NCBI GenBank assembly: GCA_040384765.1
Contig: JAZKIQ010000007.1
Span: 1-10,631 of the forward strand
Direction: 5' to 3'
Length of the DNA: 10,631 nt
Source of the DNA: Patescibacteria group bacterium
Lineage (GTDB): Bacteria > Patescibacteriota > Minisyncoccia > Phycocordibacterales > JBBUBG01
Positions within the stretch are counted from its first letter, which is position 1. Each line of letters begins with the position of its first letter. The notes under the pieces are model-generated. The model worked only from the letters and a program-made list of their open reading frames with translations, had not been told where the DNA came from and ran no database searches. The position numbers and the translations under genes were made by a program. This document shows, piece after piece, positions 1 to 9,464 of this stretch.

Positions 1-199
1 GAAGTTGGAATTGCTAGTAATCGCAGGTCAGCTATACTGCGGTGAATACGTTCTCGAGTCTTGTACTCACCGCCCGTCAAGTCAGGGAAGCCGGGAGCGC
101 CCGAAGTCTCACGTATGTGGGCCTAAGGCGAGCTTGGTAACAAGGATTAAGTCGTAACAAGGCACGGGTAGCGGAAGCTGTTCGTGGAATTTTTCAATG
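1..199 (+). rRNA. rrs: 16S rRNA, 3' end (partial); divergent, with short h44 and no anti-SD
   Basis: Conserved SSU motifs are present: GCTAGTAATCGC, GGTGAATACGTTC, TTGTAC(T)CACCGCCCGTC and AAGTCGTAACAAGG (149-162). The h45 hairpin is CACGGGTAGC-GGAA-GCTGTTCGTG. The 3' end is placed by alignment to the E. coli tail and is approximate. Confidence 0.97.
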
Positions 200-469: not shown

Positions 470-613
470 CTACGCTGCTTTGCTCAGAGCCAGTCACAGC
501 TCGCTTTCTTCTGAAAGCGGTCGCGACCCCGCCTCCTCGCCTTCGCTCGTCCGGCCCGTGGCTCTGGTAACTGCTGCGCTAGCTCGCAGTTACGCAGCCT
601 TGGTCAGAGCCAC
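470..613 (-). repeat. Structured repeat element A: 65-bp scaffold (493-557) with arms derived from the host gene
   Basis: The scaffold aligns without gaps to 1435-1499 (43/65 identical by manual count). It is flanked by an imperfect direct repeat at 471-492/591-612 and carries an inverted arm GTGGCTCTG at 558-566. Confidence 0.75.
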
Positions 614-1129: not shown

Positions 1130-1164
1130 TACAAAAAGAGCACCTAAAGGGTGCTCTTTTTGTA
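1130..1164. terminator. Intrinsic terminator downstream of the tRNA locus (minus-strand transcript)
   Basis: 15-bp inverted repeat TACAAAAAGAGCACC-N5-GGTGCTCTTTTTGTA. Confidence 0.85.
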
Positions 1165-1170
1165 GATACA

Positions 1171-1211
1171 TTGGTGCGCGCGCCAAGATTCGAACTTGGG
1201 ACCTATCGAGT
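1171..1211 (-). repeat. Perfect 41-bp duplicate of the tRNA-Ile 3' half (A37 through CCA)
   Basis: Identical to 1279-1319. Confidence 0.95.
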
Positions 1212-1251
1212 GAGGAGCGAAGGCTTGGAGCTCCGCAAGACCTTTTGCGAG

Positions 1252-1388
1252 CTTTTAAAACTACTTTAATTGCCGAGCTTGGTGCGCGCGCCAAGATTCG
1301 AACTTGGGACCTATCGAGTATCAGTCGATTGCTCTACCAACTGAGCTACGCGCGCACTAAGCGCATTAATTTAAAGTAGTTTTAAAAG
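1252..1388. repeat. 18-bp perfect inverted repeat bracketing tRNA-Ile
   Basis: CTTTTAAAACTACTTTAA (1252-1269) pairs with TTAAAGTAGTTTTAAAAG (1371-1388). The stem extends outward via 1240-1247/1392-1399 and 1227-1232/1404-1409. Confidence 0.9.
1280..1355 (-). tRNA. tRNA-Ile(GAT), 76 nt, CCA encoded
   Basis: Cloverleaf: GCGCGCG TA GCTC AGTTGGTA GAGC A ATCGA CT-GAT-AC TCGAT AGGTC CCAAG TTCGAAT CTTGG CGCGCGC A CCA. Confidence 0.95.
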
Positions 1389-1417
1389 ATCCAAAAGGTG
1401 TACAGCTCCTGTAGGGA

Positions 1418-1538
1418 GTCGGTAGAGAGCAACTGTCACAGGTTCTTTTCTGCTGAAAAGCCCTGCGACCCCGCCTCGCGCACTTTTGCGCTCCGGCCCT
1501 TGATTGCTTCAGGTCTTCGCAATCAAGCTACGCGCGCA
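1418..1538 (-). repeat. Structured repeat element B: 65-bp scaffold (1435-1499) plus a degenerate copy of the tRNA 5' half (1500-1537)
   Basis: Same scaffold as element A. The 13-bp AGCTACGCGCGCA at 1526-1538 equals 1344-1356. Confidence 0.75.
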
Positions 1539-7523: not shown

Positions 7524-7532
7524 ATGCGCACA

Positions 7533-9464
7533 ATGAGCTCTAACGAACCAGTAACCTATTTTGCGGAGACTGATTTCCGAGGCAAAAAGACTAAGTTTGG
7601 GATCAGGCGTAAGGACCGTGCCCGACACGTCTATGTGATCGGGAAGACCGGTATGGGAAAGTCGACCATGCTTGAAAACATGGCGATTCAGGATATTCAA
7701 AATGGTGAAGGTCTTGCCTTCATCGACCCTCACGGCGCGACTGCCGAGAAGCTTTTGCAGTATGTGCCTGAGCATCGCATCAAAGATGTGATCTATTTTG
7801 CGCCGTGGGATCTTGCGTACCCCCTCTCTTTTAATGTAATGGAGGATGTGGGTAAAGATCAGCGGCATCTTGTTGCAAACGGCCTAATGGCTGCATTTAA
7901 AAAGATCTGGCCAGATGTATGGAGTGCGCGTATGGAGTATATTCTCAACAATATTATTCTCGCGCTTCTCGAGTACCCCGACTCGACACTTCTCGGGGTG
8001 AACCGCATGCTCGCCGATAAGGCGTTTCGTGATGCTGTCGTCGCAAATGTTACCGATCCGTCCATCAAAGCGTTCTGGGTAGACGAGTTTGCAAAATATA
8101 CTGATAAGTTCATGACGGAGGCTGGCGCTGCGATTCAAAACAAGATTGGACAGTTCACCTCGAACCCGCTCATTCGCAATATTGTCGGCCAGCCCAAGGG
8201 CTCGCTCAATATTCGAAAGATCATGGATGAGAAGAAGATTCTCATCATGAACCTCTCCAAGGGGCGCATGGGAGAGATCAATGCAAACCTTATCGGTGGT
8301 ATGTTGATCACCAAGATCTATCTTGCCGCCATGTCACGTGCTTCAGCCTCGCCTGCGGAGATGGCCGTGCTTCCCGATTTTTATTTTTATGTTGATGAAT
8401 TTCAGTCGTTCGTAAACGAAAGCTTCAAAGATATTCTTTCAGAGGCACGCAAATATAAGCTCTGCCTTACAATTGCGCACCAATATATTGAGCAGATGCC
8501 CGAAGAGGTGCGTGATGCCGTGTTTGGCAACGTAGGTACGACGATCGCATTTCGCGTGGGTCCTTTCGATGCAGAGGTGCTTGAAAAAGTGTTTGAGCCA
8601 CAGTTTATGGCGATCGATATTGTTGGCCTTGGATTTGCACAGATCTATCTCACCCTGATGATTGATGGCGTAGGCTCGCCTCCTTTTTCGGCGCGCACTA
8701 TTGATACGATCTCGCCGCCTCCGATCTCGTTTGTGCCACGTATCATGGAGTGGACACGAGGCACCTATGCAAAGCCTGTGGCTATTGTGGAAGAAGAGGT
8801 GCGCAAGTGGCACGAGCCTATTATCCCGCCCAGGAAGGAGCTTCCCCCGAGAGCACAAGGGGGTATGGGGCCTCCAAATGGAGACCGCCCGCACAGACAG
8901 CCCTCCTTTTTCAAGATTGGTGCGGAGCAGCAGCGTCCACCTATGCCTTCCAGGGGGCCCCAGGGTGCACCAAGCGGCCCGCGGCCTCCTGCGCGCGATT
9001 TCCCTCCGCGAGGGGGGAGTGGAGATCGAACGGCAAGCAGCAATGCGGGTCGATCGAACGAGCGTCCTCTCCCTCCGGTAAGGCCTCGAGATCCGCTTCC
9101 ACCGCCAGCACCATTCCAGCCATCGCAGCCACCAGCACAACCTGCGGTTTCTCTCGAGCAACTTAAAAAGAACGCTCCCGAAGAGGGAGGAAAAACAACT
9201 TTGCGTGAAGCGCTTGCTGCAGCTATGAAGGAGCAAGAGGAGCGCAAGAAAAACTCAACCGTTCAATCGGCGTCTTCAAAAACAGAAGCGCCTAGAGTTG
9301 CACCTCCGCAACCCTCTCCTGTCCAGTCGGCCGTGGAGCCAAAAAGAGAGGAGAAGCGTCCAGACCAAAGAGCGCCTGTCGCCTCTCCGGAAAAGATGTT
9401 GTCTCCTACTGCGGAAGAGATCAAACGCATGTTTGAAACCGGCACACCTCCAGAGCAGTTATAG
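7533..9464 (+). CDS. TraG/TraD/VirD4 (TrwB/HerA-like) type IV secretion coupling-type ATPase with a Pro-rich disordered C-terminus
   Basis: Walker A GKTGMGKS, IDPHG, Walker B YVDEFQ, LSEARKY, AHQY and FGNVGT. ATG 7524 directly abuts the -10 box, so 7533 is preferred. Confidence 0.85.
   Translation: MSSNEPVTYFAETDFRGKKTKFGIRRKDRARHVYVIGKTGMGKSTMLENMAIQDIQNGEGLAFIDPHGATAEKLLQYVPEHRIKDVIYFAPWDLAYPLSFNVMEDVGKDQRHLVANGLMAAFKKIWPDVWSARMEYILNNIILALLEYPDSTLLGVNRMLADKAFRDAVVANVTDPSIKAFWVDEFAKYTDKFMTEAGAAIQNKIGQFTSNPLIRNIVGQPKGSLNIRKIMDEKKILIMNLSKGRMGEINANLIGGMLITKIYLAAMSRASASPAEMAVLPDFYFYVDEFQSFVNESFKDILSEARKYKLCLTIAHQYIEQMPEEVRDAVFGNVGTTIAFRVGPFDAEVLEKVFEPQFMAIDIVGLGFAQIYLTLMIDGVGSPPFSARTIDTISPPPISFVPRIMEWTRGTYAKPVAIVEEEVRKWHEPIIPPRKELPPRAQGGMGPPNGDRPHRQPSFFKIGAEQQRPPMPSRGPQGAPSGPRPPARDFPPRGGSGDRTASSNAGRSNERPLPPVRPRDPLPPPAPFQPSQPPAQPAVSLEQLKKNAPEEGGKTTLREALAAAMKEQEERKKNSTVQSASSKTEAPRVAPPQPSPVQSAVEPKREEKRPDQRAPVASPEKMLSPTAEEIKRMFETGTPPEQL

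Follow-up and report, generated by a model that had tools for sequence, protein, structure and literature searches.

Organization of the tRNA-Ile locus

The window analyzed here, meaning the whole stretch of 10,631 nucleotides, belongs to contig C7 of a Patescibacteria genome (hereafter G000) that comprises 822,710 bases in 12 contigs, is 99.83% complete and contains 43 tRNA genes according to ARAGORN. It begins with the last ~200 nt of a 16S rRNA gene (1-199, plus strand). The sole tRNA detected in the window by ARAGORN and Rfam is a tRNA-Ile(GAT) encoded on the minus strand (1280-1355, 76.1 bits), which is also the single tRNA-Ile(GAT) found by ARAGORN in the genome, and a MurC-like gene starts at 1624 in the opposite direction. 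The nearest MurC relatives bear names such as Parcubacteria, Jorgensenbacteria, Vogelbacteria and Paceibacterota, in line with a placement in the Patescibacteria. This intact tRNA gene is nested within a second, broken tRNA-Ile gene. The broken gene is interrupted by two structured repeats, named E and B. E lies in the D arm, B lies in the anticodon loop, and the working gene occupies the central hairpin of B (Table 1).

The nesting is apparent from the repeats present at the locus. A perfect direct repeat of 41 nt (1171-1211 = 1279-1319) extends from the anticodon loop of tRNA-Ile through the CCA, in agreement with the perfect 3' half that had been reported in a preliminary description of this DNA. 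At the other end, a perfect repeat of 13 nt (1344-1356 = 1526-1538) gives two matches in the window for 0.00 expected from 200 shuffles. It includes one upstream T as well as a CT that also opens hairpin P1 of E. The copy of the acceptor 5' strand proposed in the same description is genuine: GCGCGCGTAG (1537-1528) is derived from a tRNA, is the same as in the inner gene and represents the sole tRNA-derived part at the 5' end. The ~288 nt separating the outer ends likewise hold an intact tRNA-Ile, as stated earlier. The remainder of the proposed shell has to be read differently. The presumed D stem with a compensatory change (GCTT/AAGC) and the presumed anticodon-stem strand ATCAA, matching at four of five positions, together make up both arms of a 9-bp hairpin, CTTGATTGC/GCAATCAAG (1527-1499), which constitutes P1 of repeat E. 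Both arms are identical in the E copy located at C4:49374-49469, and one of them differs by one base in the copy at C10:53025-53125. Within the outer relic, CTCTAC is a scrambled piece of the D stem, and the anticodon GAT is missing from the shell.

What remains of the initial picture is an intact tRNA-Ile bracketed by the ends of a second tRNA-Ile; what has to be given up is a shell folding like a tRNA, as the outer gene is broken by two unrelated structured repeats. No tRNA was called by ARAGORN after removal of the inserts from the shell, either in G000 or in the related genome G382 described below. ARAGORN and Rfam call the inner gene alone, and a weak tRNA match at 1175-1240 scored 15.9 bits for a gathering score of 29. 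No open reading frame (ORF) is present within the 67-nt or the 288-nt insert. A tandem duplication of a 108-nt unit was ruled out, the repeat covering 41 nt of this unit only.

The folding of positions 1172-1537 (minus strand) was computed with RNAfold. The 5' GCGCGCG (1537-1531) pairs with the 3' CGCGCGC and the outer T arm is formed, with a minimum free energy of -157.6 kcal/mol (z = -7.4, 0 of 100 shuffles being as good). The outer acceptor and T-arm pairing of the 366-nt RNA imagined in the preliminary description is therefore predicted. An acceptor stem, a T arm and a CCA end are expected to fold in any copy of the ends of a tRNA, so that this result is no proof of function. Among the sequencing runs listed as containing the stretch, none is an RNA run. 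The promoter assumed to lie upstream of 1537 was not recovered, as a consensus scan of 1050-1700 gave no sigma-70-like promoter on the minus strand. The same scan produced no terminator call downstream of the unit, where a terminator had also been proposed. A perfect 15-bp inverted repeat is nevertheless present there (1130-1164); it was left uncalled because its T run sits within the stem, and its sequence makes it a likely two-way terminator closing the unit.

Table 1. Features of the nested tRNA-Ile unit and of its surroundings (window coordinates)
Feature	Position	Strand	Evidence or remark
Outer tRNA-Ile relic, positions 1-10 (GCGCGCGTAG)	1528..1537	-	Identical to inner tRNA
E hairpin P1, 9-bp stem CTTGATTGC/GCAATCAAG	1499..1527	-	Arms shared with other E copies
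E core: GCCGGA, hairpin P2, GAGGCGGGG, hairpin P3	1435..1497	-	R2 score 76.2 bits
Outer relic of D loop and anticodon stem: AGTTG, CTCTAC (inner: GTAGAG), CGACT	1417..1434	-	Compared with inner tRNA, G382, G008 and the G000 tRNA-Thr locus
B 5' part: hairpin Pa and conserved GTACACC	1397..1416	-	Outer Pa pairs use CT at 1418-1417
B, 5' arm of long hairpin Pb (18 bp perfect plus extension)	1371..1396	-	Inverted repeat
Leader between Pb arm and inner tRNA	1356..1370	-	
Inner intact tRNA-Ile(GAT), CCA encoded	1280..1355	-	ARAGORN, Rfam 76.1 bits
Trailer from inner tRNA to Pb 3' arm, with GCTCG, recurrent in loops of several empty B copies	1270..1279	-	
B, 3' arm of Pb	1243..1269	-	Inverted repeat
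B 3' part: TCTTGCG, hairpin Pc, terminal TCA	1211..1242	-	
Outer tRNA-Ile relic, positions 38-76 with CCA	1172..1210	-	Identical to inner tRNA; 41 nt with the ambiguous A at 1211 and base 1171
Perfect 15-bp hairpin with A/T runs	1130..1164	-	Inverted-repeat search
Second E copy in the window, after the stop of ORF 590-1081, not beside a tRNA	493..600	-	

Two families of structured repeats

Repeat E is a structured sequence of ~100 nt, made of the variable hairpin P1 followed by a core of ~61 nt. In G000, 19 copies were detected by nhmmer at E-values below 0.01 and 31 matches were obtained with a covariance model, R2. This model also matches 115 of 150 genomes sampled from the order, with 1 to 33 copies in each. 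A search by regular expression was less selective, its loose form giving 1153 mostly false matches and being dropped, and its stricter form giving 13. Hairpin P3 comprises 14 pairs, which are 97.2% paired over 26 aligned copies and covary at 0.577, to be compared with 0.187 in shuffled alignments and no more than 0.17 for slid partners. P3 also contains a G.U pair that is invariant in all 26 copies (columns 50 and 84 of alignment A2), and the purine-rich joining strands GCCGGA and GAGGCGGGG are conserved around a three-way junction. The combination of an invariant G.U pair with conserved joining strands suggests a specific RNA fold or a protein-binding site. A tmRNA-like RNA was considered for these elements and dropped, given the ~20-31 copies per genome and the lack of an alanine identity pair.

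Repeat B, with a length of ~85-105 nt, is composed of hairpin Pa with its TAC-containing loop, the motif GTACACC, the long A/T-rich hairpin Pb, the motif TCTTGCG, hairpin Pc and a terminal TCA(A). In 16 copies taken from nine genomes, its 25 pairs are paired at 94.4%, with a covariation of 0.451 versus 0.125 after shuffling and at most 0.12 with slid partners. Hardly any G.U pairs are found in the stems of B. The corresponding model, R1, matches 89 of the 150 sampled genomes, with copy numbers ranging from 1 to at least 26 and equal to two in G000. A direct indication of the behavior of B was provided by locus L014, in which an 81-nt B splits a copy of E. When B is taken out, a single contiguous E match of 42.0 bits is obtained versus 18.7 and 5.3 bits for the split halves, so that B behaves as an insertion. 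This is the one clear case of a B copy within a copy of E.

No Rfam family corresponds to E or B: a cmscan search with E-value thresholds, applied to positions 200-1700 of the window and to 15 loci with E or B copies, returned tRNA, rRNA and chance matches only. The conserved motif strings of the two repeats and their description were likewise absent from the literature searched, which included one 2026 preprint on noncoding families.

Association with tRNA genes

The proximity between these repeats and tRNA genes extends well beyond the tRNA-Ile locus. The preliminary description had suggested that the same architecture be looked for at other tRNA loci, and partial self-copies as well as nested tRNA layouts do recur in G000 and in its relatives. 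In G000, part of the tRNA is repeated exactly within ~320 nt of the gene for at least 12 of the 43 tRNAs, tRNA-Thr(TGT) being a 13th. Ten of these loci were inspected, and their partial copies border E cores or reversed B-like sequence. For tRNA-Ile the copy (41 nt) starts in the anticodon loop, and for Arg, Gly, Ala, Tyr and Glu the copies (15-19 nt) start in the T loop; they stop at the discriminator or one to two bases beyond. Nine of the 19 E copies of this genome are located within 400 nt of a tRNA, the remainder following protein genes. A similar trend was observed for B. In a set of 40 copies drawn from 40 genomes, 24 have a tRNA gene at a distance of ~450 nt or less, for a proportion of ~7% expected by chance according to our own estimate, and 20 of these 24 have an exact partial copy (at least 12 nt) of that very tRNA in the 1-kb locus, many of the copies touching the ends of B. 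These partial copies were detected by exact-word matching. The nhmmer tRNA profile, which reported them at three of the 40 loci, was replaced because of its insensitivity to short relics.

The tRNA-linked E loci of G000 usually follow a common layout. The intact tRNA is followed by a terminator-like hairpin, a perfect complement of the acceptor 3' strand of the tRNA, a hairpin and a complement of the T-stem 3' strand ending in TTCGAA. Next come an E core or a reversed B and, lastly, a direct copy of the tRNA running from the T loop (CGAAT...) to the discriminator. The complementary left flank is illustrated by C2:17071-17270, C5:175241-175470, C10:70855-71070 and C1:118444-118700. Together with the terminator hairpin, the complement flanks constitute long palindromes, which are nearly perfect and centered on the terminator loop at Leu(CAA), Ser(GCT) and Leu(GAG). 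Where the tRNA has G.U pairs (Ala position 3, Glu position 2, Arg position 50), the complement segments give A-U pairs. Because these segments extend over the genomic base after the discriminator and not over the CCA, their template was DNA. The priming of a retroelement by a mature tRNA was rejected on the same ground, in addition to the lack of a reverse transcriptase match.

Nested and one-sided loci in related genomes

An exact pattern requiring the two halves of B to be 90-220 nt apart was found in eight of 401 genomes of the order. In five of these a whole tRNA stands between the halves, namely tRNA-Ile in G000 and G382 and tRNA-Leu(TAG) in G179, G391 and G085, and relics of the same tRNA flank each of them. 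The other three (G203, G033 and G054) contain tandem B copies or repeated units.

G382 belongs to a different family than G000. On the 5' side of its inner gene, positions 1-24 of the outer tRNA, a copy of E and positions 27-36 with the anticodon are found in succession. They precede B with the intact tRNA-Ile, and then the outer 3' part, which has a mutated T stem and a further insert. The acceptor stems of the two genes differ, the outer one being GCGCGTG/CACGCGC and the inner one GCGCGCA/TGCGCGC, and both types exist as ordinary tRNA-Ile genes in other relatives. This difference fits two genes of different history. The neighbors of the G382 locus (L040, contig C5 of G382) are the 16S 3' end and a DUF4015 gene, as in the window, and all three are carried by one strand. 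The nested unit of G000, by contrast, is in the orientation opposite to that of the 16S gene and is separated from DUF4015 by murC and a methylase gene. The same order, judged from coordinates alone, is found in G062, a member of the same family as G382. In a third family, G136 has an outer tRNA-Ile with an empty B in its anticodon loop; the intact tRNA, together with a promoter-like stretch, is housed in the first hairpin of a truncated E inserted in the D loop or D arm. The nesting of tRNA-Ile thus concerns G000 and genomes of two other families, and that of tRNA-Leu a further family. In G179, G391 and G085, B is antisense to tRNA-Leu. It interrupts the outer gene at the T loop, and the intact gene lies within it along with the region upstream of that gene.

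Relics are restricted to one side at several loci. In G008, an intact tRNA-Ile with an A/T-rich inverted repeat on its flanks is preceded, at a distance of 43 nt, by outer positions 1-12, E and positions 14-41, and no 3' relic is present. In G032, the sequence downstream of the intact tRNA-Ile contains the 3' half of B followed directly by a copy of positions 38-62 of this tRNA, and no 5' relic is present. A comparable arrangement exists in G000 itself, where positions 1-25 of tRNA-Thr(TGT), E and positions 27-37 lie 14 nt upstream of the intact gene, and the tRNA-Phe of G024 has the same kind of one-sided organization. The relics are identical to the working gene over 41 of 41 nt in G000 and 25 of 25 nt in G032, and those of G008 are also identical. 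The independent occurrence of 5' and 3' duplicates, which had been considered fatal to the nested structure in the preliminary description, is therefore partly borne out by G008, with its 5' relic and E, and by G032, with its 3' relic and the 3' half of B.

Tandem arrays were also noticed. Locus L037 (contig C4 of G179) contains tandem units made of a tRNA 3'-end relic and the 5' half of B, and locus L041 (contig C35 of G033) contains tandem units made of a relic and a whole B. To judge from their organization, both arrays look like products of unequal exchange between repeats.

Origin of the nested arrangement

The anatomy of the locus, the existence of two repeat families whose hairpins covary, their spread in the order, their association with tRNA genes, the insertion of B in E and the recurrence of nesting are established. 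As to the origin of this arrangement, we give an even chance to the proposition that the shell is the relic of a resident tRNA-Ile gene split by insertion elements E and B, one of which carried a replacement tRNA. According to this scenario, E would have inserted in the D arm of the resident gene and B in its anticodon loop, at about position 36/37. The long central hairpin of B would have housed a whole tRNA-Ile gene in its loop, and this inner gene would now be the only tRNA-Ile(GAU) of the cell. E and B would be, or would have been, small, non-autonomous and mobile, with a preference for the loops of tRNA genes, and B would have brought the tRNA as cargo. In the tiny genomes of Patescibacteria (Candidate Phyla Radiation), with their single-copy tRNAs, insertion into a tRNA gene should be lethal. 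The survivable insertions would be those made into spare or partial copies, or those bringing a replacement for the disrupted gene. A given tRNA would be found only within a copy of the same tRNA because insertion into a single-copy essential tRNA can be survived only when the same tRNA is supplied. The relics decay, as illustrated by the loss of the anticodon in G000 and by the mutated T stem and further insert in G382. Gene conversion between repeats ~100 nt apart would keep the outer relics similar to the inner gene.

The same scenario may accommodate the one-sided loci, which could result from deletion between direct repeats of a nested ancestor. With the halves of the tRNA called a and b, the nested form reads a - B5' - [a b] - B3' - b. 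One-sided loci would be produced whenever one a recombines with the other, or one b with the other, and the reciprocal product would consist of tandem [a - B5'] units, as in L037. The simpler alternative mentioned in the preliminary description, that of two independent insertion scars, is half right: both ends belong to one disrupted gene, and single-ended loci are the expected deletion products of the nested form. A more ambitious proposal is that E and B represent a new kind of hairpin element that targets tRNA loops and carries a tRNA in its own hairpin loop, so as to achieve a self-compensating gene replacement. We advance it tentatively, as a possibility that will rather tend to prove wrong. 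If true, it would explain the nested tRNA-Ile of three families, the nested tRNA-Leu of a fourth and the many half-tRNA relics.

Several observations weigh against an origin of the locus by insertion of E and B with a replacement tRNA. About 290 nt of relic DNA have long been retained in streamlined genomes with an identity of 41/41, which could mean that the whole structure is under selection. The neighbors shared by G000 and G382 indicate a locus that is inherited and old. The G.U pair invariant in 26 of 26 copies of E is strand-specific and looks like RNA rather than selfish DNA. The intact tRNA of G136 resides in a different hairpin of the same locus, and its arrival by a route other than cargo is possible. 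The perfect complement of the tRNA 3' end forming the left flank of many tRNA-linked E copies is without explanation in the element model. The enzymes of mobility are elusive as well. No match to a Y1 transposase (PF01797), TnpB (PF07282) or a reverse transcriptase (PF00078) was obtained in G000, and Phage_integrase (PF00589) gave one match in this genome, on contig C4, and none in or near the units, serine recombinases being outside the search. ORFs with a Y1_Tnp domain (~220-260 aa) exist in 25 of 40 related genomes, with up to six per genome (for example G038, G020 and G001). No B or E motif was found within 1.5 kb of 20 inspected genes of this type, which were accordingly rejected, at these 20 loci, as a source of B or E movement. 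In the viral contigs of IMG/VR, the pattern of the B 5' part gave no match, and that of E gave nine, all due to chance and located in GC-rich phage genes without the rest of E.

Other explanations have to be weighed against the same observations. A misassembly or a chimera in this metagenome-assembled genome is hardly credible. Some suspicion could arise from a contig that begins in a 16S gene, from an exact 41-mer near common k-mer sizes and from a sequence occurring in one sample only. In the Logan contigs of run X1, probably the source sample, one contig of 127 nt nevertheless covers 1182-1308 and bridges the spacer, others cover 1000-1200 and 1290-1800, and the depth of the repeat node (16 versus 6-8 in the flanks) fits two copies. 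Logan is a separate assembly of the same run and not an independent sample, and the same nested order exists in the separately assembled genomes G382 and G136, as well as in G062 by coordinates; the assembly, which the preliminary description had wished to see confirmed, is upheld. It is also conceivable, if very improbable, that the locus displays the scars of tyrosine-integrase elements that entered anticodon and T loops, restored the gene and were then mostly deleted, E and B being what is left of their ends. The anticodon loop and the T loop are classic attachment (att) sublocations in tRNA genes, and such sublocations are reportedly treated in the work of Reiter in 1989 and Williams in 2002. 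The start of the partial copies in these two loops and their stop at or near the discriminator would be accounted for in this way. No integrase is present in or near the units, however, the one Phage_integrase match of G000 being on C4, and the supposed elements measure just 67-250 nt. Such scars also fail to account for relics of the 5' half, for an inner tRNA that is complete and for a single gene with relics to its left and right; B is also found in an E copy without tRNA, and complement segments next to E would be unexpected at att sites. A third possibility, which we consider quite unlikely, dispenses with mobile elements and invokes errors of replication or repair. Hairpin DNA would have promoted template switching and fold-back synthesis around functional E and B motifs, resulting in local duplications. 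The perfect complements of the neighboring tRNA 3' end in the flanks of E cores, copied from DNA, the near-perfect palindromes centered on terminator loops at Leu(CAA), Ser(GCT) and Leu(GAG), and the tandem units of relic and B 5' half in L037, which fit unequal exchange, all speak for it. It leaves unaccounted for the dozens of unrelated sites at which E and B recur, behind protein genes and within each other, as well as the breakpoints, whose positions in the tRNA loops are shared by distinct tRNAs and genomes. Neither integrase scars nor pure repair artefacts, though each covers part of the picture, explain the dispersed, nested and conserved elements.

The last explanation is that of a functional composite RNA of ~366 nt, transcribed as one molecule, in which the outer acceptor and T arm with the CCA end would be recognized by RNase P, RNase Z or the CCA-adding enzyme, or would have a protective role. 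On this view, the inner tRNA would be flanked and released by E and B, which would act as RNA modules in processing, in regulation or in the binding of proteins. The pairing of both ends and the outer T arm predicted by RNAfold are consistent with such a role, and so are the layout kept in at least three families with locus neighbors common to G000 and G382, the identity of the outer 3' part to the inner tRNA over 41 of 41 nt and the conservation of the E and B cores across the order. The invariant G.U pair and the conserved junction sequences make E resemble an RNA motif, and an acceptor-like and a T-like helix frame many tRNA-linked E copies. On the other hand, the outer pieces have not lost the same parts everywhere, G000 lacking the anticodon, G382 the T stem, and G008 and G032 an entire half, and copy numbers from 0 to more than 26 with a patchy presence (89/150 and 115/150) fit mobile DNA better than a housekeeping RNA. 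The near absence of G.U pairs in the stems of B suggests a constraint at the DNA level, which also counts against a composite RNA. A terminator-like hairpin is often situated between the tRNA and E at tRNA-linked loci, and the consensus scan showed no minus-strand promoter upstream of 1537. On balance, this RNA is judged unlikely. Splicing of the outer gene is unlikely as well: its exons rebuild no tRNA, E and B match no intron or ribozyme family, and no match to the tRNA-splicing endonuclease (PF01974) or to RtcB (PF01139) was obtained in the 99.8%-complete G000.

These loci have several implications. If E and B are mobile, they represent a novel strategy by which selfish DNA settles in essential genes and spares the host, and a route for the exchange or replacement of tRNAs. 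If they are functional RNAs, two widespread RNA motifs are tied to tRNA loci. With regard to annotation, such loci give false partial tRNA matches, may hide real tRNAs and break assemblies. The nested loci also provide a concrete system for studying the evolution of tRNA genes in reduced genomes.

Neighboring genes and additional observations

The ORF that precedes the second E copy of the window, at 590-1081, encodes 163 aa, is unannotated and has no Pfam match. About 40 nt beyond this E copy, a perfect two-way terminator-like hairpin (415-450) faces the end of the 16S gene. An ORF of 646 aa (7524-9464), situated a few kb from the nested locus, has weak matches to TrwB and TraG, coupling protein domains of type IV secretion (E-values of ~1e-6 to 1e-7), and may encode an ATPase related to conjugation or DNA transfer.

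Some other tRNA loci of G000 are unusual. The anticodon loop of tRNA-Asn(GTT) at C5:86077-86372 is split (CTGT, intron, TAA) by a group I intron of ~222 nt, which was identified as RF00028 with 74.7 bits (positions 324-548 of locus L133). This tRNA was missed by ARAGORN without the intron option and miscalled as Thr with it. Partial copies of its own 3' end and a reversed B-like element are located beside it. By the ARAGORN scan alone, without covariance models, an odd tRNA-Ser with anticodon ACT was reported at C5:175092-175178, and no transfer-messenger RNA (tmRNA) gene was reported in this 99.8%-complete genome.

Comparison with known systems

Partial tRNA duplicates adjoining inserted DNA are a classic observation. 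In the parts of the literature covered by our search, we have not seen described the combination of gene-less inserts of ~100 nt, two structured families spread over a whole order, relics on both sides and a tRNA in the hairpin loop of the insert, which is apparently undescribed. Interrupted tRNAs, either the intron-containing, split and permuted tRNAs of archaea or those with group I introns in bacteria, similarly have structured inserts at the anticodon loop, D arm and T loop. Here, however, the interrupted copy is not a working gene, the intact copy is inside and the exons rebuild no tRNA; there is no match to a splicing endonuclease or RtcB, and E and B belong to no intron family. In rRNA operons, long inverted repeats flank 16S, 23S and spacer tRNAs as processing stems. 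The tRNA-Ile described here is comparably located downstream of a 16S gene, on the same strand in G382, and inside a long perfect stem. This stem differs in belonging to the dispersed repeat B, which is often empty elsewhere, and the G000 unit is inverted relative to the 16S gene.

The small non-autonomous hairpin elements of bacteria include miniature inverted-repeat transposable elements (MITEs), REP and REPIN sequences with their RAYT proteins, and the palindrome-associated elements of the IS200/IS605 group. E and B resemble them by their length of ~100 nt, their multiple copies, their intergenic location, their nesting in each other and their patchy copy number, and the stems of B covary with nearly all pairs of the Watson-Crick type. 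They differ by their preference for tRNA loops, by the presence of a tRNA gene in a hairpin loop and by the invariant G.U pair of E; moreover, no cognate transposase was found beside any copy, nor anywhere in G000.

Integrative elements and genomic islands enter tRNA genes and restore them, with att duplications in the anticodon or T loop. The present loci have in common with them a tRNA target, breaks in the anticodon or T loop and a partial direct repeat extending to the tRNA 3' end, and in both cases the inserted DNA supplies what keeps the tRNA working. In contrast to these elements, the inserts described here measure 80-250 nt, with no integrase found, and a whole tRNA is supplied, with relics on both sides and relics of the 5' half. 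Their conserved part is made of covarying hairpins, whereas that of integrative elements is a recombinase gene.

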